The notes below the pieces were generated by a model. That model had not been told where the DNA came from and searched no databases. It was given only the letters and a program-made list of their open reading frames with translations. From the IMG/VR virus record IMGVR_UViG_3300042891_002337, positions 1-64,000 of that record: 64,000 nucleotides of DNA; one strand, written 5' to 3'. The first letter of the stretch is position 1. Each line of letters begins with the position of its first letter. This DNA comes from a virus. Made by a program: the position numbers and the translations under genes. This document shows positions 6,911-34,323 of this stretch, piece by piece.

Positions 6911-7348
6911 CTATCGAAGTGCAGGTGGAAGTTTTACCTTGGCCCTTACCCCATTCTCTAGTAATATGGTTTCGTCCTCTTGGACACCCTCATCGTCACT
7001 TTCTTCGAAACTTCTTTCGAGGCGACTAACCTGTGGTGATTCCTGCTGCGGAAGTTCTCTAAACTCTCTTGCCTTGACAGAAAGCGCGCGCGCACACACC
7101 CTTTCAATGCCCCTTCTGGCATTCTCAAGAAGTGCTTCCTTTGCGTCCTCTAAAGAGGTGAAGACATTTTCAGGTGATTCATCAAGCGGAACAGGCTCCA
7201 GGTTTCTGTTCTCGCTCACTGACACCAGATAGGATCGCTTCTCTCCGTCGACCGTCCTGCGGACGACTTCCTCAACTACCCTTACGGGAACGAGTGATTG
7301 CTTATCCTTGAATACAATGAAAAGAAATTGTCCGACTTGGTACTGCAT
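6911..7348 (-). CDS. Hypothetical protein
   Basis: 145 aa; apparently leaderless, TAAGAT 5 nt upstream. Confidence 0.7.
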   Translation of the reverse strand: MQYQVGQFLFIVFKDKQSLVPVRVVEEVVRRTVDGEKRSYLVSVSENRNLEPVPLDESPENVFTSLEDAKEALLENARRGIERVCARALSVKAREFRELPQQESPQVSRLERSFEESDDEGVQEDETILLENGVRAKVKLPPALR

Positions 7349-7381
7349 GTATCATCTTACCAAGTCGGACAGGAATGTTCA
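7329..7381 (-). promoter_or_regulatory. Promoter TGAAC-N17-TAAGAT with 14-bp inverted repeat enclosing the start codon
   Basis: TGTCCGACTTGGTA (7329-7342) / TACCAAGTCGGACA (7358-7371). Confidence 0.75.
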
Positions 7382-7391
7382 ATAGAAAGGA

Positions 7392-7817
7392 TTACTTGAA
7401 ACCGATTCCCTTGAATCCCATTGTGACTCCGCGTGGTGCACCAGTCTTCTTGCCAAAAACCTGGCCCGATGCCCAGTTGGATGCAAGCTCGTCCCTGATG
7501 ATGCTCTTCATCTTTGAGTATGAAACTCCCTCTGAGGTGGCACCAAAGAGTCCTGCCATGTCGCCACCGGCTTCGCCGCCTTCCTCACCGGAGGCAGCCT
7601 CTCCACCTTCAGGTTCCTTGATTTCCATTCCAAGGGCGGTGGCGAGTTGCTTCACAGCATCCTTCAGGGCAGCCTGGTCAACCTTCTTCTCCTCCTCTGG
7701 AGGAGCCTCTTCCTCATGGAGCCTGGATTCTTTGAGAAGTCCGTTACCGCCTGATTCAGGAAGGCCTGCAAGCTTTAGCATCCTGTTTGCGTCAAAGTTC
7801 ATAATAACCTCTGACAC
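7392..7817 (-). CDS. Hypothetical acidic late protein (RMLKLAGL motif)
   Basis: Late-type box at 7818-7824; the ATG near 7802 may be the real start. Confidence 0.7.
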   Translation of the reverse strand: MSEVIMNFDANRMLKLAGLPESGGNGLLKESRLHEEEAPPEEEKKVDQAALKDAVKQLATALGMEIKEPEGGEAASGEEGGEAGGDMAGLFGATSEGVSYSKMKSIIRDELASNWASGQVFGKKTGAPRGVTMGFKGIGFK

Positions 7818-7823
7818 TAACTA

Positions 7824-8468
7824 TTACAGACTCTCCAATCTTACACCATAACGGGGGACACCACTCTCGATTGCAAGAACTTTCTCTTCAAGCTTCTTCT
7901 TTGTCTTTACAGCTCGAGGTGAGCAATCAGCAATCTTCTTCAAATGCTGGGCTTTATGCAACTCAGAAACATTCTCAAGGAACCCGATGATAGGCCTGCA
8001 TTTGTGAGCAGCTCGACCTTTGATCATCTGAACCTTGCCCTTGCTTCCTGGGTGAGGGTTTCGAAAGTCATCCTTGACAAGACCTTCAAACAGGAACACG
8101 CCATATTCCTTGAAGTCCTTGTCGATCACAACGTAGAGATAGTCTCTGCCGTCACTTAAAGAGTGAGCGTCTGCCTGGAATGTGATGGAGCCCTCTGCAT
8201 TGGGGGATGTGAGCTTGCACTCCACTTCCTTTCCAATCTCGGGAATGTGAATGTCAGGCTGTCCTGTTCTTCCATCAGCGGTTGCGGTGGGAAACTTCTT
8301 TCGAATCTCCCTTGCAAAGAACTCTTCCTGTGAGTGCGACAGGAGGTTATTGCGACGACCAACGTTGTTCGAGAAACTGAGTCCGTACTTGTTGAAGACA
8401 TCATCAAGGTCACTTGAGAGTGACTTCATTGACATGAGAGCGTTGACAGCAGATTCACGTGTAATCAA
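7824..8468 (-). CDS. PD-(D/E)xK restriction endonuclease-like protein
   Basis: GQPDIHIPEIGKEVECKLT motif. Confidence 0.6.
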   Translation of the reverse strand: MITRESAVNALMSMKSLSSDLDDVFNKYGLSFSNNVGRRNNLLSHSQEEFFAREIRKKFPTATADGRTGQPDIHIPEIGKEVECKLTSPNAEGSITFQADAHSLSDGRDYLYVVIDKDFKEYGVFLFEGLVKDDFRNPHPGSKGKVQMIKGRAAHKCRPIIGFLENVSELHKAQHLKKIADCSPRAVKTKKKLEEKVLAIESGVPRYGVRLESL

Positions 8469-8470
8469 AG

Positions 8471-8511
8471 AACCTCCTGTTCAAATCATAACAGGAGTTA
8501 CGATAAGTTCA
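8471..8511 (-). promoter_or_regulatory. Promoter TGAAC-N16-TATGAT with RBS-sequestering hairpin
   Basis: Minus strand AACTCCTGTT-atgatttg-AACAGGAGGTT. Confidence 0.7.
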
Positions 8512-8856
8512 ACCGATCTCGCCGCCAACGTTCTTTGCAACATTCATCGTGATCTTCTTTCCAGCTGCCTCAGCTTCCTTCAGGGGTTGGAGTCCAAAGC
8601 ACTTCCTAACCTCATCGTAAGTAGACTCAGGAAGCCTGTCCTTCAGGATCTTCATGTCTGCGAACTGCCTCAGATCCATTTCCATTACAGGGAGCTCCTC
8701 ACCCTTGGGACCAGGCTCAAACTCACCGGTAGCCCTGTTGACGAAGATGAACAGCATGGCCGGATCCTCTTCGTTGTTAGGGACATTGATGAACGGAATG
8801 TTAGAGTCTTCCTCGTAACAGATTTCAGGGATCCACTTGCTAGATTTTGTCTTCAT
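8509..8856 (-). CDS. Hypothetical protein
   Basis: 115 aa; TAGGTT 5 nt upstream of ATG. Confidence 0.7.
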   Translation of the reverse strand: MKTKSSKWIPEICYEEDSNIPFINVPNNEEDPAMLFIFVNRATGEFEPGPKGEELPVMEMDLRQFADMKILKDRLPESTYDEVRKCFGLQPLKEAEAAGKKITMNVAKNVGGEIG

Positions 8857-8874
8857 GTTGAAACCTACACAATG

Positions 8875-10221
8875 TCAGGGAGACGTATCCACCTTTATCT
8901 GATTTTGGAATTTGATTCCTGCATTCTCAATCTTGCTTCTTGCTGCCTTGAAGACATTTCCAAACTCACTCTTCATGAGGATTTCTTTGTCATCTGCGTT
9001 CTTTGGCATGAATGTTTCATCAAACTTCTTGAGAGTTTCTTGTTTAGCACTTGCCATCGTTGATTGAACCTGGTTCTTGGAGTCAGTCACAATCTTTGAC
9101 ATTATTGTCTTTGTGACTATCTCCTGAGCAGCAGCTTTCTTTTCTTCGTCTGTCGGAGACTTGGGATCTTTTGGCTTGACAACGGATGTCACGAAAAGAT
9201 CGGAGATCTTTCCACTTTCTTCGGCCTTCAGGAGAGTCTCATCGGTCAATTGCTTGATCCTGTCAGGCTTTAGTTGCTCAACACCTGAGACCTTGAAGCC
9301 GACCTTTGTCATCTCATTGAGAATGCCATACATCTCGTTCGGTGTCTTTGCTGCCGATAGGCTTACGATCAGACTGTAAGGTTGCTCAAATTTCATTGCA
9401 AGCTCGTCAGCCATTTGATTCATGTCTTGCTCTACTTGCTTTGCTGATGACTTCACGCCAAGCTTCTCAAGATCTACCTGCTTCATGAAGTGTTCGACGG
9501 CAATCTTGAACTCTTCCTTAGTGAGAGGAGTAGTGACATCCTGCTTTGCTTCTATCAAAATAGGAAGCTCACCGTACGAATAGAATTCAGTTGCTGTTGG
9601 TGGCCTGGGCCTGTCCAATCCGGAAACTCTAAGAGGAGGTGCACGCATAAGCCTTGGGTCTAGAGATATTCCAAAAGCCCTATTCAGCCTGTTCTCAATC
9701 TGCCTTGCATTTCTTGAAGGAGCCGAGCCTCTTCCTCCTCCCATCGCTCCTCCATAGTTGAATCCCATGGAATAGTTGATGCGATTGTTCATAAGAGACG
9801 CAGTGTCCCTGGCGCCCGGAGGACCGATGTCGAACGGATTGAGGCTGTCGCCTGTCGATTCCTGATAAAAGTCTATGAAGTTACGAAGAGCGCCTGGACC
9901 TCCTGCAAGCAATCGAGCACCGAGGACATAATCAGGACTGAACACAAATGAAAACAGGTTCATGTCACCAGATGTTGCTTCAATCTTTGACATGATCTCA
10001 GACGACTTTGCGTTGAGAGACTTCATTCTGTCATAGTATTTGTCGATAATCTCAAACACTTTCTTGTTATCAAACGTGAAGACCAGCTTGACGGCAGTAA
10101 CAGCAACATTCAGGAATTGAGCAAATGTGTTCTTCACAACATCTAGCAAATTTTCAAACGGCTCTGTCCAAGAAGACACAACAGAACTCTCAGCTTCTAA
10201 TAGAACTACCTTCCTGTTCAT
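8875..10221 (-). CDS. Hypothetical protein (late cluster, possibly virion-internal)
   Basis: 448 aa; coupled to the upstream gene. Confidence 0.75.
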   Translation of the reverse strand: MNRKVVLLEAESSVVSSWTEPFENLLDVVKNTFAQFLNVAVTAVKLVFTFDNKKVFEIIDKYYDRMKSLNAKSSEIMSKIEATSGDMNLFSFVFSPDYVLGARLLAGGPGALRNFIDFYQESTGDSLNPFDIGPPGARDTASLMNNRINYSMGFNYGGAMGGGRGSAPSRNARQIENRLNRAFGISLDPRLMRAPPLRVSGLDRPRPPTATEFYSYGELPILIEAKQDVTTPLTKEEFKIAVEHFMKQVDLEKLGVKSSAKQVEQDMNQMADELAMKFEQPYSLIVSLSAAKTPNEMYGILNEMTKVGFKVSGVEQLKPDRIKQLTDETLLKAEESGKISDLFVTSVVKPKDPKSPTDEEKKAAAQEIVTKTIMSKIVTDSKNQVQSTMASAKQETLKKFDETFMPKNADDKEILMKSEFGNVFKAARSKIENAGIKFQNQIKVDTSP

Positions 10222-11177
10222 TAGTCCTTCTCTACGAGAGGTGGAACTCCCATGACACGAGGATTACCTGAACCTGGTGACCTTCTCATTGCAGCCTTCA
10301 ACTGAGATTTCAGGGCCTTCAATGCCATTGTGAATGCATGCCTGCTTTCTGAACCCGGTTCCTGGTACGACCTTATTCTTTCCATATCCTCTATTCTGGC
10401 TTCGATGTCTGCAACGTGCGCCTTTGATCCAAAGGGAACAACTCTTCCAGACGAGACAGGGACATCCACCTCACGAATTCTGGTCTTGACTCCTTCACCA
10501 ACAACTATGGGAGGAACAGCACCAACTGCCACCTTCTTCGATTGCTGTGCTTGTTGAGGCTTATCACTCACAGGTTTGGAAGCAGGTTTTGAAGAGCTGG
10601 GACCTGATATCTTTATAGAGTACGTGTCAAGTGGACTTGGCACTTCAACAGCCTTTTCACCGCCGAGAACTATCTTTGCAATTCCATCGCTGAATGCAAA
10701 GAACGCTTTCCTTTCTTCAGGAGAAAGAGCATCGATGTAAGTCCGAAGCTGTTTCGAAACCTCCTCATCCTTTAGCGACTTTCCTGCTCGAATAAAATTG
10801 AGCCTCGATATCACATCGTCTGATTTCACTTCTTCGTCAGGAGATTTTGAAGCTGCAGCAAGTTTCTTTGCACCAGGTAGCTTTCCACCTTTCTTTGACT
10901 TGCTGTCTCCGCCACCCTTGTCCCCTGATTCGGAATCTCCGCCTTCATCGCCCTTATCTTCTTTGCTGGTGTCGTCTTCGCCTTCGTCTCCCTTGTCCTC
11001 TTCATCGCCACCAAACAGGCCTTCCTCATCAAGCTCTTTCTTCTCTTTTGTGGCGGAAAGCTTAGATAGCTCCTTCTTCATCTTCTTCTGATGACTAATC
11101 TCCTTCTGAGATGCACTGTCAGTCTCATGAAGATTCTTCAGAAGTATCCTGAGTTCGAGAGAATTTAGCGGCCTCAC
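10221..11177 (-). CDS. Hypothetical protein with acidic low-complexity region
   Basis: 318 aa; D/E/G/K-rich segment; coupled overlaps. Confidence 0.75.
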   Translation of the reverse strand: MRPLNSLELRILLKNLHETDSASQKEISHQKKMKKELSKLSATKEKKELDEEGLFGGDEEDKGDEGEDDTSKEDKGDEGGDSESGDKGGGDSKSKKGGKLPGAKKLAAASKSPDEEVKSDDVISRLNFIRAGKSLKDEEVSKQLRTYIDALSPEERKAFFAFSDGIAKIVLGGEKAVEVPSPLDTYSIKISGPSSSKPASKPVSDKPQQAQQSKKVAVGAVPPIVVGEGVKTRIREVDVPVSSGRVVPFGSKAHVADIEARIEDMERIRSYQEPGSESRHAFTMALKALKSQLKAAMRRSPGSGNPRVMGVPPLVEKD

Positions 11178-11344
11178 CGGTACCTCACTCTATTCTGTGG
11201 AAGCTCTTGGTACTTTTGCACACGCTGGCGCTGCAGTGTCTGCTCATCAGTTTCCTGTGTTTGGCGTGACTGTTCATGGCGTGTAATGTTCTCCATGAAC
11301 TTGTCAAACTCAAAAGATGGGTTTTCGTGATTATCGTTTTCCAT
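11174..11344 (-). CDS. Small hypothetical protein (MENDNHEN...)
   Basis: Fits operon packing. Confidence 0.55.
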   Translation of the reverse strand: MENDNHENPSFEFDKFMENITRHEQSRQTQETDEQTLQRQRVQKYQELPQNRVRYR

Positions 11345-11348
11345 GTCT

Positions 11349-11705
11349 CTAAGTATCTCCGTCCAACACGAAAGAAAGTTCGAAGTTTGATTCGACAAAA
11401 TTGAGAGAAGCACCTGTGACGGTTCCTCCCAGAGAGAAGTTTCCAAGTTCAACTTGACACTTCCCAATAATCTTCAAGATATCAGCAGGTGAAAGATCAC
11501 ATGTGGGCTTGACGACAACCTTCACAATATTGAGGTCAAGGGCTGTGGATACAGATATCAGGTTTCCCTGTATCTCCCTTTCAGAGAATTTGCCGACAAA
11601 GCTTTCTGAGCTTCCGGAAAGTCTCTCAAGAAAACCGTCAGATGCTAAAATCTGTCCGTCCGCCTGGTTCAGGTAATCTGAACGATGCTTGCTTGAAAAG
11701 CTCAT
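11349..11705 (-). CDS. Hypothetical protein (start uncertain)
   Basis: Fills the gap; N-terminus overlaps the upstream gene. Confidence 0.5.
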   Translation of the reverse strand: MSFSSKHRSDYLNQADGQILASDGFLERLSGSSESFVGKFSEREIQGNLISVSTALDLNIVKVVVKPTCDLSPADILKIIGKCQVELGNFSLGGTVTGASLNFVESNFELSFVLDGDT

Positions 11706-12057
11706 CTACTTGTCTCGCATAATCTAAATCTATTCTAGTAACTCTATTGAGGTCCTTTGTATAGATCTCAACTGAAACTTGATCGTGGTCTATGATGTGC
11801 ATTCCATGATGTTGGATGCTATCCTCATAGTCTAGCAACAAAGAAACAAACTGGGATAGTGAAGACCTGTCAATAAAAGTGAACACCCTTCTAATTCTCT
11901 CTGGGTCTTTGAGCCTTTCCCAGCCTGACTTCGTTGGAATTACAGGCAGACTAAAGCTTTCCTCAATCCTTGGTGGTAGGTCAAGGGTCCTTCGATGAGA
12001 TTGATTTTCTCTATCAAAGTACTCCTGCAATAGGGATGAGACTTTCATGTCCCTCAC
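11638..12057 (-). CDS. Pterin-4a-carbinolamine dehydratase (PCD/PhhB)-like protein with N-terminal extension
   Basis: GW...IRRVFTF....SQFV...EDSIQHH...VSVEIYTKD...VTRIDLDYARQVD. Confidence 0.8.
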   Translation of the reverse strand: MRDMKVSSLLQEYFDRENQSHRRTLDLPPRIEESFSLPVIPTKSGWERLKDPERIRRVFTFIDRSSLSQFVSLLLDYEDSIQHHGMHIIDHDQVSVEIYTKDLNRVTRIDLDYARQVDELFKQASFRLPEPGGRTDFSI

Positions 12058-12395
12058 TCACTTTCAGCGTTGATGATCTTGTCGAGAAGATTGTTGAATG
12101 ACCTGTAGAATTCAGCAACCTTTTCTTGTGGGACCGCCTCACCAAGGATTGCGAGCGCCTTTCCAAGCTCCTTTGGATTTGCTGGAACGAATTCGTCGTC
12201 CTCCACAGGTGGCCTCTGTTGAGAAAGCTGATTTGCAACATCTCCTGCCGGAGATATCGGTAAGCTTGATGGAAGGCCTGGTGCCTGTTTGTCATCACGA
12301 CCTGACCTTCCACTTGTCTCGTCAGAGATTCCAAGAGCTTCTCTAACCAGTTTTCTGATTTCTCCAGGTGTCGTCACGACTTTCATGTTCTTCAT
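12054..12395 (-). CDS. Hypothetical late protein (EIRKLVREAL leader)
   Basis: Late-type box CTATTTA at 12419-12425. Confidence 0.7.
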   Translation of the reverse strand: MKNMKVVTTPGEIRKLVREALGISDETSGRSGRDDKQAPGLPSSLPISPAGDVANQLSQQRPPVEDDEFVPANPKELGKALAILGEAVPQEKVAEFYRSFNNLLDKIINAESE

Positions 12396-12441
12396 TGAGC
12401 ACGCTCTCTTTCAAATGTTAAATAGTAGACTTCAAGCAAAG

Positions 12442-16470: not shown

Positions 16471-16496
16471 GGAACTAACTATCACTCACCGGCACG

Positions 16497-19788: not shown

Positions 19789-19796
19789 GTTCTCCT

Positions 19797-22700
19797 CTAG
19801 CAATCCAAGTACTTCATCTTTCCGATGTTGGTTGAGATGCCCCAGTTCACCTCATGGTTGACGTTGGCCATCCAGATGGAGTAGGGTACCAGCTTATCAT
19901 TTGAATCTCCCCACACTCGTATCCAGCTGGTCTTTAGAGAGGAGTCTACAACCTTGAGCCGAAGGAAAGTCTTGCCTGTCTTTGTGGACTTCTTTTCGAT
20001 GTGAATCACACAGAACCATGCAATGTCAGAGTTTCCAGGCTCGATCTCTGAGATTGCAGGAATCTCAACCTTTCGAATCTTGCCCATAATCTCTTCGGGG
20101 AACATGATGTGGTGAGGAGCGGCACCTGAGATTTCGGCCTGAAGGGCAACCTTCTCGGTTCGTGTCCAATCCTCGATGCACTGTGTGGATTCGATGAGGG
20201 TCTCAATCACAGGTGGAGCATTGGTCTTTGCTGCCTTCTTGGCACTCATCCCCCATCGTCCCTTGCGCAGGACTCCGTAATTTCCAATGATGATCTCATG
20301 GAGCTGCTTGTGGTTGTTGACCTTGCCGGACTTGAACTCTTCAAGTGAGGTGAATGCCTCCATTCCAAGAAGGGCCTCGAAGCATCGACGGTTGAGCTTT
20401 GAGTGCTTCCAATTTCCTTCCTCATCGAAGAGGAGCTCATCCATGTTTCGGTATGGTCGATTCTCAATGATCTCATCGACTGCCGAATCACCGACACCCT
20501 TCAAGGAGGAGAGAGGTGGGACGAAAGAATCAAGCTCATCTGACCATGACCACTCCTCAGAAGAAGAGTTGATGTCAGGTGGTGAGATCTTGTAGCCCTG
20601 CTGCTTGATCTCGGACATCACCACAGCGAGGCCTTCAACATTTCGATTCTCAGTCTGAAGGCAGGTGGCAAGCCAATCCTTCTCATAGTATGTCATGAGC
20701 CAAGCACCATAGTAGGAGTCGATGGCATATGCAACAGAGTGGGACTTGTTGAAACCGTAAAGTGAGAAGAATGCGATTGTCTCAAAGAGGTCTGTGGCCT
20801 GCTTCTTTGAAAGACCGGACTTTTCAATACATCCGCTGATGAACTTCTTTTCCAGGGCCTCCTTCTCATCGGACTTCTTGCCAAGGGATGTGAGGTCCTT
20901 CTTCACCAGGGTCTTTCGCATCTTGTCAGAGTCACCAGGTGAGAATCCGGCAAGCTTCTGTGCCAGCAACATGAACTGTTCCTGGAAGACGATGAACCCG
21001 CATGTTGGGCCGAGGATCTCCTCGATGACCGGATGGTCGTACTTGATTGCGGCTCGATTCTTCTTGGCCTCGACGTACTTCTTGTGGACGTCGGCCTTCA
21101 GGGGACCAGGACGATAGATTGCCGTGATGGTGGAGAGGTCCACAATGTTCTCAGGTTGAGCTGAAATACAGAACCTCCGTGCGCCATCCGATGTGAACTG
21201 GAAGATGCCTGGCCACCGACCTGCCTGGTAGACGAACTTGAACACCTCAGGATCGTTGGGATCGACATATCGACAGTTCAGCTTATCGTCATAGAACTTC
21301 TTGACTTCCTTGAAGGTGGGCTCCTTTCCGGTCTCACGACGGAGGATTCGACGGATACAGTCCTCAACCATCTGCATTTGCTTCAGGCCAAGGAAGTCGA
21401 ACTTTAGGAAGCCGTTCTCCTCCAGGTTTCGAATGTTGACGCCTTCAGTCCATGGTGTCTGTAGTTCACCGCGAACTGTGATGAGTGGCATGTGCTTCTC
21501 AAGCTCAGGACAGACAAGGACGCCACCGGCATGACGACCAATGGATCGATTCATCATGAAGAGGGCTCGGACCTTGTCCTCGACCTGAGGGTACTTCTCC
21601 ATGAACTCACGGTACCTGGGAGAGTGCTCGAGGCAATCCTCATGCTTGAGGACGAACATGGACTTCTCCATGTTAGGATCTCGGGACTTCTCTGCAACCT
21701 CACGTTCGAGGGGACCTGTGACGGCATTCACCTCATCGAAAGGAATGCCATAGAACTTTGATACGTCCTTCACCAGGGACTTGAGCTTGAGGGTATTGAA
21801 GTTGGAGACTGGGACAACCGATTCCTCACCGAAGATCTCACGTGCTGCATCGATAAGAGCATCACGGTTTCCGACGTCAGTGTCGATGTCAGGCCAACCT
21901 GCACGGTGACGACCAAGGAATCGTTCCCAGAGGAGGTCATATCGCATTGGGTCGACGTGAGTGATTCCAAGGAGGTAGTTGACGAGGGAACCTGCGCCGG
22001 AACCACGACCGGCACCTGGAAGAGTCCGGTTCTCGGCAACCTTGAACACCTTCTGAAGTGTGAGGAAGTAGTTCTCGAAGCCAAGGTGCTTGATGTCACC
22101 AAGCTCGAACTTGGCACGTTCGACGTATTCCTTGTTGGTTGCAAGACCCTCATCAATAAGGGCAGTCTTCACAAGGCTGGTGAGTTGGCTCATTGCAGTG
22201 CTTTCAGATGTGGAGAACGAAGGAAGCTTTGCAGTGTCCTCGAACCAGATCTCCTCACACATCTGCCACGCAATGTCATGTCCACGTTCGATGGAGGAAC
22301 GAACCACATCTTCAGTCCCCTCATAGAACTTGAACTCCTTTCGTCGGAGGAGGTACTCTTCCCACATCTGGTCGGCATTCTTGGGGAAGAGTTCAGCCTT
22401 GATCTGGTCCTTCGTAGGAAGTGGCTTCGGCTCCTCACCAATCTTCATTCGACCAGGCTGAAGCTGGCGATAGATCTCACGGGCTTCCCAAAGGTCAGGA
22501 CCAGGGTAGTGAGCGTCAGAAGTGGTAAGGAGGGGAATTCCTGTTCGCTGGGACAGGTCAATCATGCACCGGTTCGTGAGGTCCTGTGCGCCGAGTCGAT
22601 TGAACTGGATCTCGAGGAAGAAGTTGTCTCGTCCAACACAGTCGGTGAATCGATCTACCATGTTCTGAAGTCGATTGTTGATTCGGTTTCGAACGGTCTC

Positions 22701-23336
22701 ATCATCAACAAGTCGAGGATCGAGCTGGTCAAACTTGAGGTCTGGGAACTCACGGTAGATAATGCCGGACGGATAGCCGCCGACGCATGCTGTGGAGACC
22801 ACCAGGCCTTCACCATGTTCCTTGAGCATGTTGAAGTCGATTCGTGGGAACTTGTAGAACCCGTCCTTGAAGGACTTCTTGACCAGAGTGAAGAGGTTGG
22901 AGAGGCCGACTCGATTCTTGGCAACCACGACAAGGTGGTACCGTCGACTGATGTTGTCGATCTGCTCGGTTCGAGTGTCGTCGGCATCCTCGACAACAAG
23001 GCCAGCCTCTTCCTCATCGTTCTCGGAGGTGCTGTCCTCTGCCGAGATACCCTTCGAAAGGTCGTAGGCCTTCTTCCATTCCTTCAGGTCGGGGACAAAG
23101 TAGAACTCCACACCGTAGAGTTGGCGGAACTTTGCACCCTTGCCCTTCAGCTTCTTGGCATGCGCGTGTGCATGAGCAAGTCCATTGCCATTTCCATGGT
23201 CTGTCAGTGACCAGGAATCGAGGCCATTCTTCAGGCAGAAGTCGATGTGCTCACGAGGTTCGGAGAGTCCATCGAAAGGAGAGAACGTCGAGTGGTTGTG
23301 GATGGAGGCGTAACGATTTGGGGGTAAAAGAATCAT
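19797..23336 (-). CDS. dnaE: DNA polymerase III alpha subunit (family C)
   Basis: PHP HNHSTFS..DG and TDHG; GRGSGAGS; PDIDTD; GRHAGG; KFDFLGL; YGFNKSH. Confidence 0.97.
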   Translation of the reverse strand: MILLPPNRYASIHNHSTFSPFDGLSEPREHIDFCLKNGLDSWSLTDHGNGNGLAHAHAHAKKLKGKGAKFRQLYGVEFYFVPDLKEWKKAYDLSKGISAEDSTSENDEEEAGLVVEDADDTRTEQIDNISRRYHLVVVAKNRVGLSNLFTLVKKSFKDGFYKFPRIDFNMLKEHGEGLVVSTACVGGYPSGIIYREFPDLKFDQLDPRLVDDETVRNRINNRLQNMVDRFTDCVGRDNFFLEIQFNRLGAQDLTNRCMIDLSQRTGIPLLTTSDAHYPGPDLWEAREIYRQLQPGRMKIGEEPKPLPTKDQIKAELFPKNADQMWEEYLLRRKEFKFYEGTEDVVRSSIERGHDIAWQMCEEIWFEDTAKLPSFSTSESTAMSQLTSLVKTALIDEGLATNKEYVERAKFELGDIKHLGFENYFLTLQKVFKVAENRTLPGAGRGSGAGSLVNYLLGITHVDPMRYDLLWERFLGRHRAGWPDIDTDVGNRDALIDAAREIFGEESVVPVSNFNTLKLKSLVKDVSKFYGIPFDEVNAVTGPLEREVAEKSRDPNMEKSMFVLKHEDCLEHSPRYREFMEKYPQVEDKVRALFMMNRSIGRHAGGVLVCPELEKHMPLITVRGELQTPWTEGVNIRNLEENGFLKFDFLGLKQMQMVEDCIRRILRRETGKEPTFKEVKKFYDDKLNCRYVDPNDPEVFKFVYQAGRWPGIFQFTSDGARRFCISAQPENIVDLSTITAIYRPGPLKADVHKKYVEAKKNRAAIKYDHPVIEEILGPTCGFIVFQEQFMLLAQKLAGFSPGDSDKMRKTLVKKDLTSLGKKSDEKEALEKKFISGCIEKSGLSKKQATDLFETIAFFSLYGFNKSHSVAYAIDSYYGAWLMTYYEKDWLATCLQTENRNVEGLAVVMSEIKQQGYKISPPDINSSSEEWSWSDELDSFVPPLSSLKGVGDSAVDEIIENRPYRNMDELLFDEEGNWKHSKLNRRCFEALLGMEAFTSLEEFKSGKVNNHKQLHEIIIGNYGVLRKGRWGMSAKKAAKTNAPPVIETLIESTQCIEDWTRTEKVALQAEISGAAPHHIMFPEEIMGKIRKVEIPAISEIEPGNSDIAWFCVIHIEKKSTKTGKTFLRLKVVDSSLKTSWIRVWGDSNDKLVPYSIWMANVNHEVNWGISTNIGKMKYLDC

Positions 23337-23401
23337 CGGGTTCCTTCCTTGACTGACCGTTTGTTGACGATCAATCTTATTAGGAAGGAACCCGATGTTC
23401 A
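23334..23401 (-). promoter_or_regulatory. dnaE promoter TGAAC-N17-TAAGAT with 16-bp inverted repeat covering RBS and ATG
   Basis: CATCGGGTTCCTTCCT (23334-23349) / AGGAAGGAACCCGATG (23382-23397). Confidence 0.8.
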
Positions 23402-23416
23402 GGATCAGGGAGAAGA

Positions 23417-23851: not shown

Positions 23852-23860
23852 TTTGACTCC

Positions 23861-24454
23861 TCAGTAATTGAGATTGATATTGTTCGATTCGATTCCAAAC
23901 TGTTCAGCACAGGAGCAGCAGGAATCAACTAGCTCCTTTGGTCCTGCAACAAACACCTGTGTTCCGATGGGAAACTCCTTCACGTTGAGCGGTGTGAAAG
24001 GAGTGTCCGGCCTACCCAGCTTCTTTGTGTTCCATTCAACGACTGTTTCAATTCCCTTCATTTCGCGAATCGATTCAATGCCAGAAGAAAGGGGATGTCC
24101 GCCACGGGTGTAGGAAACAAACCAAGTCCTCAGGTTGCGCTGTGACCTGTATTTGAGGAGGTTGTATCCCACACCCGTGGCGGTGCCGCCACAAACAATG
24201 ACGGCATCCCATGAATCATAAACAGGAAATCCCTTTCCAAGGGGTCCTGCTACATTCACTTCCGTTCCCTCCGGTAGGTCTAGAGGACCTCCGTAGCGGG
24301 TAAGCACCGAAGCAGAATTTTCATCCGAATCGGCTATAGCGAAGAATCGACCGTTGACATTGATGCACTGACCTGGTGAGGCTCCGTCACAGGGCATCTC
24401 AAACTTGACGACAATCATGTCGTCGCCTCTCAAATTTTCAATAACCTTTGCCAT
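23861..24454 (-). CDS. Ferredoxin-reductase-like FAD/NAD(P)-binding protein (PyrK-like, no 2Fe-2S tail)
   Basis: PGQ, GPLGKGF, VCGGT, VFVAGP. Confidence 0.65.
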   Translation of the reverse strand: MAKVIENLRGDDMIVVKFEMPCDGASPGQCINVNGRFFAIADSDENSASVLTRYGGPLDLPEGTEVNVAGPLGKGFPVYDSWDAVIVCGGTATGVGYNLLKYRSQRNLRTWFVSYTRGGHPLSSGIESIREMKGIETVVEWNTKKLGRPDTPFTPLNVKEFPIGTQVFVAGPKELVDSCCSCAEQFGIESNNINLNY

Positions 24455-24455
24455 A

Positions 24456-25909: not shown

Positions 25910-26847
25910 TTTACCTCCAGATTGTTGACTGAGTTTAGAAAATCTTGATGTGTGTCGTAGATATCAATGTTCTTCACATTGACCAACTGTTCATTGTAAG
26001 TCTTCTGTGGAGACAGTACACGAATCCCATGCGATGCATACTCAAGGGCATGCTTTGGTGAATCGTCCATTGCAAACATGACCTTCCCCTTCAGGAAGTA
26101 ATCCTGCTGCGTCAGCCACCTGTACTTCTCAGGGCTGAATCCGATTCCATCGACCTCAAAGCCGTGACGCTCGAGCCACGCATATGTGGCGCACTCACAC
26201 ATTGGATTCTCCTGTGGGCGCGCCGTGAGGATCTGGATCCAGAATCCCCTCTTTCGCATTGCATTGAGCTCATCTCGAAGCCAGACAAGAGGTTCGAGTT
26301 CCATCATGCCGCCAGCACTGATAAAGTCCTCAAACACGTTTGTGGGATCAATTCCAGCCTGAAGGATCGCATCGGTGTTGTAGTACTCCTTGCCATGCAA
26401 GTTAGTCTTCACACCCTTCGATTCGAGCCATTCATAGAACTTTGTTCGAAAGTCTGCAACGACGTCGTCGACATCAACAATGACAACAGGTTCACCTGAC
26501 CATTTTCGGGAAAGGAGCCTGTGACGAATGTTGAGCTGGGAGTCACGAAGTTGCATGGCAGCCTCGAGGTCCTCAGAAGAGAAGTCCCATGTGTTGAGTA
26601 CTGCGGTGATGTAACGCACAACATCCACAGACTCAAACAGCATCTTGTTTCTGTTTATGAAACGATCTTCTGTGTGGTGACGAAAGTTGATGCTGTTTGT
26701 GAGTTGACCGACCTCATTGTGAAGTGAGAGGAGGAGCGTCTTTGTGAGCTCCAGCTTCTTTTCATCATCACGACCAAACTGGTCCAGCAACTCACCAAAC
26801 GAACGTTGTGCGGACAGGATTCCCTGTAGAGTCTTGAATTCCTTCAT
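25906..26847 (-). CDS. All-alpha NTP pyrophosphatase (MazG/dUTPase-like) fused to HAD 5'-nucleotidase-like domain
   Basis: N-term HNEVGQL...FESVDV; C-term VDVDDVVAD, LTARP, MDDSP. Confidence 0.75.
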   Translation of the reverse strand: MKEFKTLQGILSAQRSFGELLDQFGRDDEKKLELTKTLLLSLHNEVGQLTNSINFRHHTEDRFINRNKMLFESVDVVRYITAVLNTWDFSSEDLEAAMQLRDSQLNIRHRLLSRKWSGEPVVIVDVDDVVADFRTKFYEWLESKGVKTNLHGKEYYNTDAILQAGIDPTNVFEDFISAGGMMELEPLVWLRDELNAMRKRGFWIQILTARPQENPMCECATYAWLERHGFEVDGIGFSPEKYRWLTQQDYFLKGKVMFAMDDSPKHALEYASHGIRVLSPQKTYNEQLVNVKNIDIYDTHQDFLNSVNNLEVK

Positions 26848-26852
26848 GATTC

Positions 26853-26880
26853 ACTGTAATCCTTGAGATATGGGTTTTCA
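26853..26880 (-). promoter_or_regulatory. Promoter TGAAA-N17-TACAGT, 5 nt before ATG
   Basis: TGAAC-class variant heading the 26847-23417 operon. Confidence 0.55.
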
Positions 26881-27114
26881 ACCCCTGACAATGGAAAAGT
26901 CAGAAATAGGCTGGTTCAGGTATGAGGTGCCAGTCCCTGGTTCAATGACATCAATGACGATGCTCAGCGTGGCGGCTCTCTCACTCCAGTAGACTGTCCC
27001 CTCATGGGGACCCCTCGTAACGAGGAATATCTTGTCAGGAGGCCACCTCCAACTCTCACCAAGGACTGGTGTGTTGGAGACTATTGATCTCCTGACAAGG
27101 TCACCCCTCTTCAA
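26878..27114 (-). CDS. Small hypothetical protein
   Basis: 78 aa; MKRGDLV start typical of small phage proteins. Confidence 0.55.
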   Translation of the reverse strand: MKRGDLVRRSIVSNTPVLGESWRWPPDKIFLVTRGPHEGTVYWSERAATLSIVIDVIEPGTGTSYLNQPISDFSIVRG

Positions 27115-27308: not shown

Positions 27309-27316
27309 TTCTTCTC

Positions 27317-27547: not shown

Positions 27548-27556
27548 AGGTTTCCA

Positions 27557-29245: not shown

Positions 29246-29327
29246 CTTCTCAGTTCACTCTGTAGAGGTAATTAGGTCACTGAAACTTTTAAATTTTTAA
29301 GGGAAGATGACGGTCATGTAAACAGTG

Positions 29328-29576
29328 TCATGCATGCCTGAGGTCAAACCCACCCCACAGCCATTCTCTTCCTGAGCAGACAACGTGAAGTTTCTCATCT
29401 TCGGACTCTTGTATTATGAGTGCGAGGTCACTTCTTCCTTCTGTTTCAAGCAGCTCTTTGACCTTGAGACTGACAGGGGATCTAATTGATTCTATCGATC
29501 CATACTCAGATTCTGCTGCCTTGATGCAGGAAACAATAGAATTCATCTTACGTCCTAATATGTCTTCGACAGCCAT
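29328..29576 (-). CDS. Small hypothetical protein
   Basis: ATG at 29576. Confidence 0.5.
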   Translation of the reverse strand: MAVEDILGRKMNSIVSCIKAAESEYGSIESIRSPVSLKVKELLETEGRSDLALIIQESEDEKLHVVCSGREWLWGGFDLRHA

Positions 29577-30505
29577 ACGGTGTCGCCAACAGATGCAACA
29601 GAGTGAGAAAATCCCCAATAGACGACTTCACCACCTGATGATATTGTCGAAAGGAAAGTCGAAGTTGGCCCATCATAGATGCCAGCCAAATTTCCCACAG
29701 TGTAAAATGGCGTATCATTCCTTGCCATCGCGATTGGAACAGGTGCATACTTGCTTGCGTCCCACTTACCGAAACCAGAAGTGTTTGTTGGTGTCTTAGA
29801 AGGTGTGCAGAAGGTGTCGATCTTCTCCCAAGTTGAAGATCCTGATACATACGCCCCTGCATGAAAGTCACCATTGTTCTCATTATGATTCAAAAAGTAT
29901 TGATTCATTCTGAAGTTGGCATTCATGGCAAACTGCCACGACTGATTGATAATTCCATATCGATAGCCGTCAGACTCAAAGTATTGACCAGTCCCATTCA
30001 GCACAGCACCTGCAATCATTGATCTTTGATTTGCATTTGATGAACCTTCAATCATTGCTGCAAAACCTTTGTCAGATGCCCAGGCATGGATTTTTGTTGA
30101 GTTTGTTGCAGATGTTGTGCTCCAGGCAGTGAGACCTGCAAAGCCCGCTGATTGAAATGGAGACGAAGCATACCAGTTTGTGTATGCACCATCAGCGTTT
30201 GTAGCAAGGCCAACAAGCACTCTTGTCGCAGAATAAGTGTCTGGCGCCAACATTGTAGGACTTGGGCTCGGAGTTCCTGAGTCCTGTGATGCAACTACAA
30301 GCCTGAAGTTTCTGGGCCCAAATGTGTTCGAATAGATTGCCTGTGATCCTGTAGTGGAATCTTTCGTCCAGGACAGAACTGTGTTCGGAACAGCGTTCCC
30401 GTAGTAATCGGTTCCTGCTGACAGAAGATTGTACAGGGCCGTTATGAAACCGTTGTTATCCGGAGGAGTGACATTCGCAGATCCCATGTAGTAACGGGTT
30501 GGCAT
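29555..30505 (-). CDS. Putative virion/tail-fibre-associated protein
   Basis: S/T/G/N-rich, aromatic-rich; coupled to the fibre gene. Confidence 0.6.
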   Translation of the reverse strand: MPTRYYMGSANVTPPDNNGFITALYNLLSAGTDYYGNAVPNTVLSWTKDSTTGSQAIYSNTFGPRNFRLVVASQDSGTPSPSPTMLAPDTYSATRVLVGLATNADGAYTNWYASSPFQSAGFAGLTAWSTTSATNSTKIHAWASDKGFAAMIEGSSNANQRSMIAGAVLNGTGQYFESDGYRYGIINQSWQFAMNANFRMNQYFLNHNENNGDFHAGAYVSGSSTWEKIDTFCTPSKTPTNTSGFGKWDASKYAPVPIAMARNDTPFYTVGNLAGIYDGPTSTFLSTISSGGEVVYWGFSHSVASVGDTVWLSKTY

Positions 30506-31797
30506 TAGACTATCTCGATGGTTGAAGATACGACTGACTGTTCGGAGTGAGCAACGTCGACAGTCATTGGGGTCACAGCAATAGCAGCGCCGAATACCCA
30601 CGCAAGGGAATTATTTTGCCATCCGAGAACTCTACCGTCACGATAGCCAGATGTCGGTGGCTCAACACCAGCAAATGAACCTGCGTTATTGTACTGAACA
30701 GAGTTCGTGGAGCCTGCGGGAGAACCGCCGCCGGTCGATGAGATCGTCACAGCTCCGTTCGAACCAGTTACTACATTTACATTCGTGCCAGCAATAATGT
30801 ACGAAGTACCGTCCGAGAGCTTTGTAAGTGAACCTGACATCTTAGTGACGGTGATGCTTCCGCCTGTGATGGACACATTGTTTGAGTTCTGTGTTGATAG
30901 AGTTCCGAGGCCAAGGTTGGTTCGAGCAGTCGAAGCATCAGAAGCCCCTGTACCACCGTCTGCAACTGCAAGATCTGTGATTCCTGTTACAGATCCACCT
31001 GTGATAGAAACATTTGAGGCTGCCTGTGTGGCAATTGTTCCTAATCCCAGGTTAGACCTCGCTGTTGTAGCGTCTGAAGCGCCTGTTCCTCCATCTGCGA
31101 TAGCGAGGTCTGTGATTCCTGTGATTGAACCACCTGTGATTGTGACGCTGTTTGATGCCTGTGTAGAGATTGTGCCCAGTCCAAGATTAGACCTTGCGGT
31201 TGCAGCATCTGAGGCGCCTGTCCCACCATCAGCAACAGCAAGATCTGTTATGCCTGCAATGGAGCCGCCTGTTATAGAAACGCTGTTCGACGCCTGTGTG
31301 GCAATTGTTCCGAGACCCAGGTTGGTCCTTGCGGTTGCAGCATCTGTGGCGCCTGTACCGCCATTAGAAACAGCAACAGGTGAAGACAGAGAAATTGTGA
31401 CTGAGCTTCCTGCTCCTCCGTCACTTATTGTAATCCCTGTCCCCTGAGTCAGGACCCTTTCCTGTGTTAATGTTGCGTCAGTCGCAAGGGTTACGTACCT
31501 TGCAGTAGTGGGTGCACCGCCACCGCCTCCACCTCCACCCACAGAATATGCATTCCCCTCGGCATCGTAGATTGTGCCTGAAACCGTCAGGTTACCCTTT
31601 ATGATGCTGCTTCCTGAAGCAACCAAGCTTCCGGATACAAAAGCATTCCCAGTGATGTTGATGCTGGATGTCTTAAAACCAGATATGCCCACATACAGGT
31701 CATGTGGGCCAACAACTCGAAGTATTTCCCTGCTTCTGTCGTCTGAGACTGGTATGAAAGACTCAGTCAGGGCAGTTCTAGCGTCTATGCTGCCCAT
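30505..31797 (-). CDS. Tail-fibre-like protein with tandem repeats
   Basis: GGTGA..A.TAR.NLGLG repeats; SVQYNNAGSFAG. Confidence 0.8.
   Translation of the reverse strand: MGSIDARTALTESFIPVSDDRSREILRVVGPHDLYVGISGFKTSSINITGNAFVSGSLVASGSSIIKGNLTVSGTIYDAEGNAYSVGGGGGGGGAPTTARYVTLATDATLTQERVLTQGTGITISDGGAGSSVTISLSSPVAVSNGGTGATDAATARTNLGLGTIATQASNSVSITGGSIAGITDLAVADGGTGASDAATARSNLGLGTISTQASNSVTITGGSITGITDLAIADGGTGASDATTARSNLGLGTIATQAASNVSITGGSVTGITDLAVADGGTGASDASTARTNLGLGTLSTQNSNNVSITGGSITVTKMSGSLTKLSDGTSYIIAGTNVNVVTGSNGAVTISSTGGGSPAGSTNSVQYNNAGSFAGVEPPTSGYRDGRVLGWQNNSLAWVFGAAIAVTPMTVDVAHSEQSVVSSTIEIV
30838..31377 (-). repeat. Four tandem 135-bp (45-aa) intragenic repeats
   Basis: LAVADGGTGASDAATARSNLGLGTISTQASNSVTITGGSITGITD-like unit x4. 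Confidence 0.9.
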
Positions 31798-31803
31798 GAT
31801 CTG

Positions 31804-32016
31804 TCAGTACCCGTACTCATCCATTTCATCGACGATCTTTTGTGCCTTCTCTTTGGACATCTTCACAGGAACTTCCTTGTCCCCGACCTTTGCAGTCTTC
31901 TTACCAGCAATTGCTGCCTTTGCTACTGCATAGGTGAAGCTGTCCTCCTCGAGAGCCTCGGCGATCAGGCTGCGAATCATTCTCCTGAATCTTGTCTCGG
32001 ACATGCTCATCTCCAC
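31804..32016 (-). CDS. Small late protein (ETRFRRMIRSLIAEALEE leader)
   Basis: Late box ATATGTA at 32022-32028. Confidence 0.7.
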   Translation of the reverse strand: MEMSMSETRFRRMIRSLIAEALEEDSFTYAVAKAAIAGKKTAKVGDKEVPVKMSKEKAQKIVDEMDEYGY

Positions 32017-32044
32017 ATCCTTACATATTCAGGAGAATGATTCG

Positions 32045-32440
32045 TCAATCGTCCGGCCAAGAATCATCGAGCTCCACAGGCGTAGGTACCTGAGCTGAAG
32101 CATACCTCTCAGACCTCTCATTGAGAAAATTGACTATCGATGCAATCGTCCTTTCCCTTTCCTCAAGAAGCTTAGGACGAGAGTGGACCCTGTCAAGCTC
32201 TCCCAATGCCCAGTCCTCGATCCTCTTGAATGCCTCCTCATAGAGAGCAACAAGATCTTCCTTCTTTATCTTCGAAGCCTCGGACCTCACCTCACCAATA
32301 AAGCCTGTGACGGTTCGAATGAGCCTGTCGGACGCAGGTAGGTCACGATTGGACTCTACAATCTCAGACTGCGCAAGCTCCCTGGTCTGTGACAATATTG
32401 CAATGAGTTCCCTTACTTCTTCAAGTCTCTCAGTACCCAT
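32045..32440 (-). CDS. Hypothetical protein
   Basis: GAGG RBS; helical. Confidence 0.65.
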   Translation of the reverse strand: MGTERLEEVRELIAILSQTRELAQSEIVESNRDLPASDRLIRTVTGFIGEVRSEASKIKKEDLVALYEEAFKRIEDWALGELDRVHSRPKLLEERERTIASIVNFLNERSERYASAQVPTPVELDDSWPDD

Positions 32441-32825
32441 TCTCAATCCTCTCAAGAATCTTCTTGTGCTTTGAAACGTATGCCTTCAGGAGGTCCTCTT
32501 CCGTGAATCCGGTCAGGATCAGGACTGAGAGGAAATAATTGAAGCCATCAACGACCTCTTCAAGGAAGTGATCCTCATTGAACTGAGGTAGGTCGGTCTG
32601 CCGATGTGGCTTTGCATTCTTCAGTTCCTGAAGCGCCTCGAACATCTCCTCGACTCCGCGAAGGACAATGTCCCTTGCCATTAGCTGGGATGACTTCTTG
32701 GTGAGGTCCATGGGCCATCCCTCACTGTAACATCCTGTCTTTTCAGTGAGCCTCTTCATGTACTCCTCACGGAGTTCAAAGAGAAGCTTCAGGCCATCAG
32801 TTGGTTGTTGTGTCGTTGAGCTCAT
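32430..32825 (-). CDS. Dimeric all-alpha dUTPase/MazG-like pyrophosphatase
   Basis: EEMFEAL..LKN.KPH, FLEEVVDGFNY. Confidence 0.8.
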   Translation of the reverse strand: MSSTTQQPTDGLKLLFELREEYMKRLTEKTGCYSEGWPMDLTKKSSQLMARDIVLRGVEEMFEALQELKNAKPHRQTDLPQFNEDHFLEEVVDGFNYFLSVLILTGFTEEDLLKAYVSKHKKILERIENGY

Positions 32826-33030
32826 TTGCCTTCTGCAGCAGGAGTTGGATGCCTTCTTCGAAACCCTTGATAAACTCAGGATCAGGATCAAGTGTTCCAC
32901 TGTCATTAGTGTGAAGTACTAAAGTGCGGAGGTTATCCACAACGTCTGTGCCTGTGAGGATTGCCATCTGGACGAGACGTGAGATCTGAATGATCGTTGC
33001 GTCTGAAAGCTTGTATGTTGTCATTGTCAC
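32797..33030 (-). CDS. Hypothetical protein
   Basis: GGAG RBS; promoter TAAAC-N17-TACAAT at 33040-33067. Confidence 0.65.
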   Translation of the reverse strand: MTMTTYKLSDATIIQISRLVQMAILTGTDVVDNLRTLVLHTNDSGTLDPDPEFIKGFEEGIQLLLQKANELNDTTTN

Positions 33031-33064
33031 TCCAGTTTCATTGTAGGGATGAAGTCAGATAAGT

Positions 33065-33853
33065 TTATAGCTGGACTCGAGGACACCACCATGTCGTTCG
33101 TCCATCCTTAGTCTCCTGACAGATGACTTGTTCACCGTTCGGATCGGTCTTTCGACCGTAAACGAGCATTGAGTGGTTTCCCTCTTCACCGTCGAAACCC
33201 TTGTATGTGAGTATCGTGGATCCGCCATTCTCGTAAGCAGTCTTGATAACCGACCTCACAGACTCATGAAGGAATCGAAGCTGGTCATCTGTGCACTGTG
33301 ATACGGTTCGATGAGGACTAAGCTTGGCAAGCCAGAGTGCGTCCGCCTTCAGATAATTTCCAACCCCTGAAACGACGCCCTGGTTCATTAGAGCCTCAGC
33401 CAAGGTAAACTTAGGGTGCTTTCGAAGGCTCTCAATGAATGCTTCCGGCTTCACATCCTCATTCAACATGTCCGGACCAAGTGACTTCAGTTTGTTCTCA
33501 AGTCCCTTTCTGTCTGTGAATTTGATGGTGCCGAAGTTGCGTGGATCGTTGAAGAAGAGGTTGCCCTCAGAAGTTTCGAACTTTACTCTGGCATTCCTCT
33601 CGCGGTTTGACCAGGAGCCAGACATACCAAGCGTGTTGAAGATAACTGTGTCGGTATCCGTGAGCCAGTAGATGAACTTGCCCTTGCACTTCACATCGAT
33701 GATGTTGATCGGAAACTGCACATCTGAGATTCCTTCGATCGGCTTCTTGAGGTATCGACCGGACAGGGGTGTGACTGATAGAAGCTGCACTCCTTGTCCG
33801 ATGAAGTTTCCAATTGAACGTACGAAACCTGCTACCTCGGGTCCCTCAGGCAT
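33065..33853 (-). CDS. Fpg/Nei-family DNA glycosylase
   Basis: MPEGPEV, KGK, LGMSG, DPRNFG, LGPD, SGVGNY, GRTTWWCP. Confidence 0.93.
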   Translation of the reverse strand: MPEGPEVAGFVRSIGNFIGQGVQLLSVTPLSGRYLKKPIEGISDVQFPINIIDVKCKGKFIYWLTDTDTVIFNTLGMSGSWSNRERNARVKFETSEGNLFFNDPRNFGTIKFTDRKGLENKLKSLGPDMLNEDVKPEAFIESLRKHPKFTLAEALMNQGVVSGVGNYLKADALWLAKLSPHRTVSQCTDDQLRFLHESVRSVIKTAYENGGSTILTYKGFDGEEGNHSMLVYGRKTDPNGEQVICQETKDGRTTWWCPRVQL

Positions 33854-34289
33854 TTGCAAACTCCTCGCTGTGATTATTCTTCAGGAAGTTGTGATAATCT
33901 GTGAGTGCGTGGTCCTTTGGTTCGACGCTTCGCCAATCACCAAGGACAAAGATTCGATAGGCATCGGATGCATACTTTCCAACACCATGAAGCTGATTGA
34001 CATCAGACCACTTTCCCTCGTGGTACTGAGCAGACATTCTCTTGAGAGTCTGGGTGCGCTTCTTTTGCATGCCCAGAGTCTTGATCATTTCCTCAAGTTC
34101 TGAGTCATCAGCTTCGGACATGGACTTTGCATTTGGCCAGCGCTGGAACATCTTTTCAACGACTGGTTCCATTTGCTTCCTCGTCGTGAGGTTGAGACAG
34201 AGGCAGCAAACAAGAATCTTCCAGGGATCAGGCCAATAACGTTCCTGGATAAGACCGAACTTTGGGGGATGCCACACGTTTGCCTCCAT
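33846..34289 (-). CDS. MBD4-like HhH-GPD DNA glycosylase
   Basis: LIQE...DPWK, LNLT, LHGVGKYASDAYRIF, DHALTDY. Confidence 0.88.
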   Translation of the reverse strand: MEANVWHPPKFGLIQERYWPDPWKILVCCLCLNLTTRKQMEPVVEKMFQRWPNAKSMSEADDSELEEMIKTLGMQKKRTQTLKRMSAQYHEGKWSDVNQLHGVGKYASDAYRIFVLGDWRSVEPKDHALTDYHNFLKNNHSEEFANA

Positions 34290-34323
34290 ATTGGAATGGT
34301 AATAGCAAACGATGAGTTTACAA

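Follow-up and report, generated by a model that had tools for sequence, protein, structure and literature searches.

Hairpins nested in predicted sigma70-type promoters of an uncultured freshwater jumbo phage as candidate insulators against read-through transcription

In T4 the genes e, soc, 49 and I-TevI, and likewise mobE of Aeh1, carry an inhibitory hairpin on early read-through mRNA, and the DNA from which the 5' strand of this hairpin is copied also contains the T4 late promoters (PMC3014915). Here we describe inverted repeats of related arrangement at gene 5' ends of an uncultured freshwater jumbo phage, above all at dnaE and at the open reading frames (ORFs) 6911-7348 and 7824-8468. The window analysed is a stretch of 64,000 nucleotides and covers bases 1-64000 of one virus record, a genome fragment of 75,598 bp (IMG/VR IMGVR_UViG_3300042891_002337, designated G0 or G000), and the minus strand carries about 80 of the 84 called genes. 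A preliminary description of the window had named the four T4 genes as precedent, and the cited review confirms that it did so correctly.

As in T4, the Shine-Dalgarno sequence (SD), the start codon or both are predicted to be paired only on transcripts started upstream, the gene's own predicted promoter lies inside the region of the 5' strand so that its own transcripts would be open, and the arms vary among related phages while the structure is kept. Unlike the T4 late promoters, which have only a -10-type box, the predicted promoters of the jumbo phage are sigma70-like with two boxes, and their spacer is taken up by the arm. Some of the hairpins moreover carry U-tracts or enclose a leaderless AUG, and the phage is unrelated to T4 and uncultured.

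For IS10/Tn10, Davis, Simons and Kleckner reportedly described in 1985 a 'protection from outside transcription' (fold-back inhibition), and IS200 is said, after Beuzon et al. 1999, to possess a 5' terminator together with a stem-loop at the ribosome-binding site (RBS). Both papers are cited in PMC2965389. With these two elements the phage hairpins would share the two-level protection (termination and RBS sequestration), the restriction to outside transcripts and an own transcription start site (TSS) downstream of the 5' arm. Unlike IS10 and IS200, which protect the transposase gene at a mobile element's end, the hairpins precede ordinary phage genes, dnaE and others, in a co-oriented array.

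Intrinsic terminators likewise combine a GC-rich stem with a U-rich tract immediately behind it, a form which is canonical in seven related dnaE upstream regions (L118, L119, L124, L126, L128, L139, L161). The phage elements differ from them in being nested in the next promoter, with the spacer as 5' arm and the -10 box as loop, and the G0 form also extends into the RBS and the first codons and has long loops. A narrow literature search for a published description of a terminator nested in a promoter found nothing specific. The principle is known from T4, IS10 and IS200. What is new is that the element is nested in a bipartite promoter and that it exists in a terminator version; to our knowledge, the layout of a terminator nested in the next promoter has not been described previously.

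Inverted repeats and promoter boxes in the phage and its relatives

Perfect inverted repeats with loops of 3-45 nt were compared with those of 200 dinucleotide shuffles. Repeats of at least 14 bp were observed three times against 0.01 expected, and repeats of at least 12 bp seven times against 0.27, an excess over chance. The three longest perfect repeats of the genome (18, 16 and 14 bp) are all located at gene 5' ends. All four repeats listed in the preliminary description, those of dnaE, ORF 6911-7348, ORF 7824-8468 and a MBD4-like gene, were recovered at their positions (Table 1).

Table 1. Promoter boxes, hairpin arms and U-rich tracts in the window.
Locus	Feature	Position	Strand	Basis or remark
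dnaE	-35-like box CTGAAC	23397..23402	-	pattern scan; TTGAAC/CTGAAC/TTGAAA in L111, L108, L138, L109, G2
dnaE	5' arm CATCGGGTTCCTTCCT, fills promoter spacer	23382..23397	-	perfect 16 bp
dnaE	-10-like box TAAGAT, 17 nt past -35, start of hairpin loop	23374..23379	-	pattern scan
dnaE	inner 10-bp stem within 32-nt loop	23351..23376	-	fold prediction
dnaE	3' arm, SD AGGAAGGA and ATG of dnaE (19797-23336)	23334..23349	-	perfect 16 bp
dnaE	U-rich tract ATTCTTTTA, codons 2-4, abuts stem	23325..23333	-	tail score
ORF 6911-7348	-35-like box TTGAAC	7377..7382	-	TTGAAC in all four orthologous loci
ORF 6911-7348	5' arm TGTCCGACTTGGTA in spacer, overlaps first 2 nt of -10 box	7358..7371	-	perfect 14 bp
ORF 6911-7348	-10-like box TAAGAT; ATG (7346-7348) 5 nt later, no SD	7354..7359	-	pattern scan
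ORF 6911-7348	3' arm, codons 3-7	7329..7342	-	perfect 14 bp
ORF 6911-7348	U-rich tract ATTTCTTTTCATT, codons 8-11, abuts stem	7316..7328	-	tail score -3.5 to -4.8
ORF 7824-8468	-35-like box TTGAAC, contains TGA stop of upstream gene	8507..8512	-	pattern scan
ORF 7824-8468	5' arm AACTCCTGTT (anti-SD) in spacer	8490..8499	-	10 bp if one bulge is allowed, otherwise 8 bp
ORF 7824-8468	-10-like box TATGAT in 8-nt loop	8485..8490	-	pattern scan
ORF 7824-8468	3' arm AACAGGAGgTT, SD of the ORF (TTG start 8466-8468)	8471..8481	-	helix covers AGGAGG
ORF 31804-32016	5' arm of 18-bp hairpin, right behind upstream TGA stop lying in TTGACG box	32027..32044	-	perfect repeat
ORF 31804-32016	3' arm of 18-bp hairpin, inside the ORF	31973..31990	-	perfect repeat
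HhH-GPD (MBD4-like) gene	7-bp pair CGTTTGC/GCAAACG before the gene	34277-34283 / 34305-34311	-	weak

The promoters concerned form a class with (T/C)TGAAC followed by a TAnnnT box, the two being 16-17 nt apart at dnaE, ORF 6911-7348 and ORF 7824-8468. On the sense strand the pattern TGAAC-N16-18-TA.GAT has four occurrences, all of them intergenic, and the other strand has one. The spacer is the 5' arm in three of the four sense-strand sites. With the looser -10 box (TAnnnT), seven sites are found immediately upstream of genes in G0, three of which have the 5' arm in the spacer. The location of the 5' arm between the -35 and -10 boxes, proposed beforehand as a recurrent feature, is thus borne out at the three loci named above but not as a general rule.

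Pairing between the spacer and the downstream sequence exceeded that of shuffled spacers at 8 of 27 promoter-like sites with p<=0.05, and at five of the 27 with p<=0.01. Strong contiguous helices involving the translation initiation region (TIR) were present at 15 of 448 gene starts and at 8 of 1045 internal ATG decoys, and helices flanking a TAnnnT box were about 8-fold more frequent near gene starts (9/462) than elsewhere on the sense strand (9/3582). A duplex-energy score between the 75 nt upstream and the TIR, by which the starts of all genes were, if anything, less structured than internal ATGs, was dropped as too permissive and the contiguous-helix scores were used instead.

Syntenic relatives were found in G1 (54 kb) and G2 (257 kb), and L103 is also syntenic; CheckV completeness values of 16% for G1 and 76% for G2 imply jumbo phages of about 330 kb. 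A search for synteny via the deoxyribosyltransferase gene gave 80 loci, and dnaE stood behind that gene in G1 and G2 only. The closest DnaE match in the cultured-phage collection has 25-30% identity. The phage DNA is present nearly unchanged in about 20 runs, all of them lake or freshwater DNA metagenomes. Contigs of four lake runs over positions 7280-8560 were nearly identical and contained no arm variants, so that the population data are uninformative on covariation. The whole window gave no match to Rfam 15 at the gathering threshold.

At the orthologous loci the -35 boxes read TTGAAC, CTGAAC or TTGAAA and the -10 boxes TAAGAT, TAGGAT, TACGAT, TAGTGT, TAGTAT, TATGAT, TAGAAT, TATAAT, TACAAT or TACCAT (at dnaE in orthologues TACGAT, TAGTGT, TAGGAT and TAGTAT). 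In all orthologues the 5' arm is bracketed by these conserved hexamers, which resemble -35 and -10 boxes and are separated by 16-18 nt. Hexamers that are kept while the spacers change are the pattern expected of real sigma70-type promoters.

Alignment of the arms revealed compensatory changes. The dnaE arms exist in five versions (G0, L108, L138, L111, which equals G1, and L109), and RNAalifold returned changes on both sides in 11 of 21 pairs. Inner stems of differing sequence are present in L108, L111 and L138 as well; in G0 the inner stem has an apical loop of 6 nt, and together with the flanking pairs the element forms a nearly continuous hairpin of 72 nt with a predicted free energy of -43 kcal/mol. 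The anti-SD arm of ORF 7824-8468 is found in four versions, of which one includes a U-G pair and another a bulge, the orthologous arms being TCCTCCATG in G1, CTCTTCTT in G2 and CGCTCtCTG in L103. At ORF 6911-7348 the 14 bp of G0 are replaced in G1 by different 11-15 bp, with CTTGACCGATG at the place of the 5' arm, the spacer tracking the coding 3' arm. Single changes yield G-U pairs in the sense RNA (L111, G2, and L126 versus L139), which argues for RNA structure rather than a DNA or protein site.

The covariation of homologous loci, which the preliminary description had named as a check, is seen at dnaE and ORF 7824-8468, where the boxes are kept and the arms change in a compensatory way. Its preference for a structure over a protein operator also stands, since the arms differ among loci and orthologues with compensatory and G-U changes. 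The covariation indicates that the repeats are under selection as structures of the RNA.

Scanning metagenomes with the N-terminus of DnaE provided 45 distinct dnaE upstream regions. A helix of 14-17 bp around a TAnnnT box was present in ten of these and in none of 438 control windows. Three of the ten resemble G0 in having a long loop and a 3' arm that covers SD and ATG, while the remaining seven are the canonical terminators nested in the promoter that are listed above. In these, a -35-like box (CTGAAC or GTGTAA) precedes the 5' arm of a 14-15 bp stem, the loop of 5-6 nt together with the closing T reads TACAAT, TATAAT or TAAAAT, and a U-run stands after the 3' arm with the SD 18-22 nt further on. 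Their stems also covary (L118 versus L119, L126 versus L139). The dnaE genes of G2/L123, L110 and L120/121 are preceded by a classical terminator and then a separate promoter, with neither the hairpin nor the U-rich codons. The reverse swap was observed at gene 60097-60951, which has a classical terminator in G0; its G2 form has TTTAAC-N17-GATAAT and, nested in it, a hairpin of 14 bp over the SD. Three interchangeable layouts at one junction point to one shared problem, that is, to stop or silence incoming transcription while starting anew. That the whole aquatic jumbo-phage lineage uses a modular unit of a terminator in the next promoter (spacer as 5' arm, -10 box as loop, first transcribed bases as 3' arm, with or without the RBS) is a tentative generalisation to which we give somewhat less than even odds.

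Further observations were made on the promoter boxes. A sigma70-family protein is encoded at 3201-3971 (minus; 2902-3201 adjoining) and matches Pfam regions 1.2, 2 and 3, but of region 4 no more than the initial 18 positions; this bears on the question by which sigma factor the TTGAAC box is read. The TGA stop of the upstream gene lies inside the -35-like box of the next promoter at 8509-8511 (T-TGA-AC), 32045-32047 (T-TGA-CG) and 26878-26880 (T-TGA-AA). A classical terminator stem at 42693-42716 overlaps with its 3' arm the -35-like GTGAAC of the next promoter (42669-42696), in a different register. Many marine relatives (L124, L128, L131-L137, L151-L161) have a conserved (C)GTGTAAA 17 nt upstream of TATAAT before dnaE, which replaces TTGAAC and is possibly a lineage-specific -35 element.

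Proposed read-through insulation and competing explanations

With a probability of roughly 60%, we consider the hairpins to be promoter-built read-through insulators that act via RBS masking, intrinsic termination or both. The 5' arm would be encoded in the spacer of a sigma70-type promoter (T/C)TGAAC-N16-18-TAnnnT, the -10 box would lie in the loop or at its edge and the 3' arm in the first transcribed bases of the downstream gene. A polymerase starting locally would begin about 7 nt past the -10 box, and its RNA would lack the 5' arm, at dnaE also half of the inner stem, and be unstructured, while RNA from the co-oriented upstream genes would have both arms and fold. The hairpin would thus be specific to RNA arriving from upstream. 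On such RNA the SD and AUG would be buried at dnaE, ORF 7824-8468, a gene starting at 70787 and several G2 loci, and where a U-tract follows, as at dnaE and ORF 6911-7348, the incoming transcript would be ended as at an intrinsic terminator. We infer the TSSs, the transcription reading in from upstream and the effect on translation or termination from the sequence.

The upstream genes, which are co-oriented, stop 9-20 nt short of the arms and are not separated from them by a terminator, and at dnaE a five-gene operon with its own promoter TTGAAA-N17-TACAGT (26853-26881) reaches the hairpin without an intervening terminator. At the SD-type loci the predicted unpaired probability from -14 to +6 was 0.11-0.31 on the long RNA and 0.37-0.66 on the local-promoter RNA, while at loci without a hairpin no gain in accessibility was predicted for the local-promoter RNA.

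A rival explanation is pure T4-style translational masking at all loci, the version of the preliminary description, in which the read-through mRNA continues untranslated and termination plays no role. At dnaE and ORF 7824-8468, and likewise in their orthologues, the helix takes up SD and AUG, the predicted accessibility differs between long and short RNA, and the precedent exists (PMC3014915). Masking alone is nevertheless unlikely, given that ORF 6911-7348 and its orthologues have no SD and hold the AUG in the loop, that U-tails stand behind the two strongest hairpins and that the true terminators of the relatives, nested in the same promoter, leave the SD untouched. At ORF 6911-7348, as at ORF 31804-32016, the start codon is in the loop and not in the helix. 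The 15-nt loop of ORF 6911-7348 contains the ATG, and in G1, G2 and L103 as well the ATG stands 5-6 nt past the -10 box without SD, which suggests that the mRNAs of this ORF and its orthologues are probably leaderless; RBS masking therefore fails to explain the hairpin. The repeat had been read beforehand as antisense to the RBS and start region; the perfect 14 bp exist, while the 3' arm covers codons and not the RBS. Other genes that are probably leaderless are the operon's first gene at 26847 (26847-26858) and further sites in G1 and G2 (L007, L010).

The tails of the dnaE (-3.1 to -4.2) and ORF 6911-7348 hairpins, with scores of -3.1 to -4.9 over G0 and G1, belong to the top 1-4% of genome positions, and the classical terminators of the genome score -3.6 to -4.9. 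The ORF 6911-7348 counterpart in G1 has a CTTTTTG tail of -3.6 to -4.9, while those in G2 and L103 have weak hairpins and no U-tract. The U-rich codons of dnaE are present in the orthologues with the hairpin and absent from those without it. Tail scoring found no terminator-grade tails at the ORF 7824-8468 orthologues, ORF 31804-32016 or the gene at 70787; the ORF 7824-8468 hairpin itself was flagged as terminator-like by the pattern scan. The stems are stable and GC-rich as in terminators, with perfect stems of 14-18 bp, while the loops of dnaE and ORF 6911-7348 exceed the 3-10 nt or so of a terminator; those of ORF 7824-8468 and of the seven nested terminators lie within this range. The U-tails and the nested true terminators of the relatives make termination at least as likely as translational silencing at dnaE and ORF 6911-7348. 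The mechanism is probably dual, with RBS masking and/or intrinsic termination, the latter being likely at these two loci.

Several points weigh against read-through insulation. The nested hairpin is present at only three of the seven class promoters in G0 and at few in G2, so that a general device across the genome, as first envisaged, is not upheld. The promoters and TSSs are predictions. At the leaderless-type loci the AUG is in the loop and the predicted accessibility is not lowered on the long RNA. With 15 and 32 nt the G0 loops are longer than is usual in terminators, the U-tracts belong to coding sequence and may stem from hydrophobic N-termini, and the co-occurrence of hairpin and U-tract rests on two clades only. 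The ORF 6911-7348 structures in G2 and L103 are weak or different, the ORF 7824-8468 orthologues are without U-tract and the hairpin at ORF 31804-32016 also lacks one. The muting of read-through proposed in the preliminary description remains the best-supported reading, limited to few junctions and probably with a dual mechanism. Its stricter form, that only mRNA starting at the local promoter is translated, agrees with the predicted accessibility at the SD-type loci, while ORF 6911-7348 and the U-tails point beyond masking.

RNase III sites separate genes of T7 and are also present in the N leader of lambda, and they resemble the phage elements as long intergenic hairpins at cistron junctions that alter the fate of the downstream message. 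Cleavage of the polycistronic RNA at the junctions by RNase III or another double-strand RNase, separating or inactivating the downstream cistron, would suit the dnaE element, which is almost one unbroken helix (16-19 bp and a further 10 bp) and whose inner stem covaries although RBS masking alone does not require it. We regard it as improbable, because such a site would have a helix of about two turns or more, only dnaE comes near this length and the remaining hairpins, of 8-14 bp, are short for the enzyme. Unlike the T7 and lambda sites, the hairpins have promoter boxes embedded in them, and the U-tracts and the -10 box in the loop are left unexplained.

No better a chance is given to hairpins that act on the gene's own mRNA, with the TSS upstream of the 5' arm, as a throttle, thermosensor or coupling device opened by ribosomes or a protein. 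The upstream stop codon is 3-9 nt before the 5' arm at ORF 7824-8468 (G0, G2) and at some other G2 loci, where a terminating ribosome could melt the arm, but at dnaE and ORF 6911-7348 it is 19-20 nt upstream, and the conserved -35 and -10 boxes around variable arms in every orthologue would have no explanation. DNA-level elements, either operators for a dimeric regulator or cruciforms presenting the -10 box single-stranded, are the least probable, for although the repeats straddle the -10 box as operators typically do and the phage has its own unusual sigma factor, no arm sequence is common to loci or orthologues, G-U wobbles are tolerated on the sense strand only, U-tracts follow the stems and the arm spacing varies from 6 to 36 nt.

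Further loci

The hairpin at ORF 31804-32016 had been counted among the weaker cases, while it is in fact the longest perfect repeat of the genome (18 bp). The start codons are in its 36-nt loop and no U-tract follows. A clear -10 box was not found at this hairpin, and five related records contained no orthologue of the gene in context. The pair before the MBD4-like gene exists and is kept in G1 with one U-G change, but on its own it is within chance, and the cases proposed near 44678 and 46508 are merely 4-5 bp, at chance level. No Pfam family was found for ORF 7824-8468, the 'nuclease' label of which is unverified.

A 13-bp hairpin with an 8-nt loop (TCATAGTT) at 70793-70822 of G000, outside the window, takes up the SD of the gene that begins at 70787; it has no U-tract and a weak -35 box. 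The region 43619-43673 (minus), before gene 42734-43618, carries a shared GGGGGTGACGCC box and has promoter counterparts at 47540-47652 in G1 and 55680-55734 in G2. There the promoter before the counterpart of the gene is followed by a long leader (86-97 nt) with a hairpin and the same box, and the leader at 43619-43673 is possibly cis-regulatory.

The most stable local fold of the genome is a hairpin of 86 nt at 24098-24183 (minus), with a 17-bp outer stem and a predicted free energy of -50.5 kcal/mol, inside the coding region of gene 23861-24454. An extended hairpin of 89 nt (-46.8 kcal/mol) is found at 27021-27109 (minus), right where the small ORF 26878-27114 begins, which has a weak coding score and a weak SD.

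Meaning for co-oriented phage genomes

If the hairpins act as read-through insulators, they would provide a sequence signature for promoter finding in uncultured phages and compact insulator parts for synthetic operons, and the principle of T4 and IS10 would hold for sigma70-type promoters and for transcription termination as well. In co-oriented phage genomes the upstream transcripts also carry the downstream genes, by which temporal control is blurred. The lineage described here appears to solve this read-through with almost no extra DNA, as terminator, promoter and ribosome-binding site overlap, and one element of about 40-70 nt would end the incoming transcript, silence leakage and start a fresh, immune transcript.

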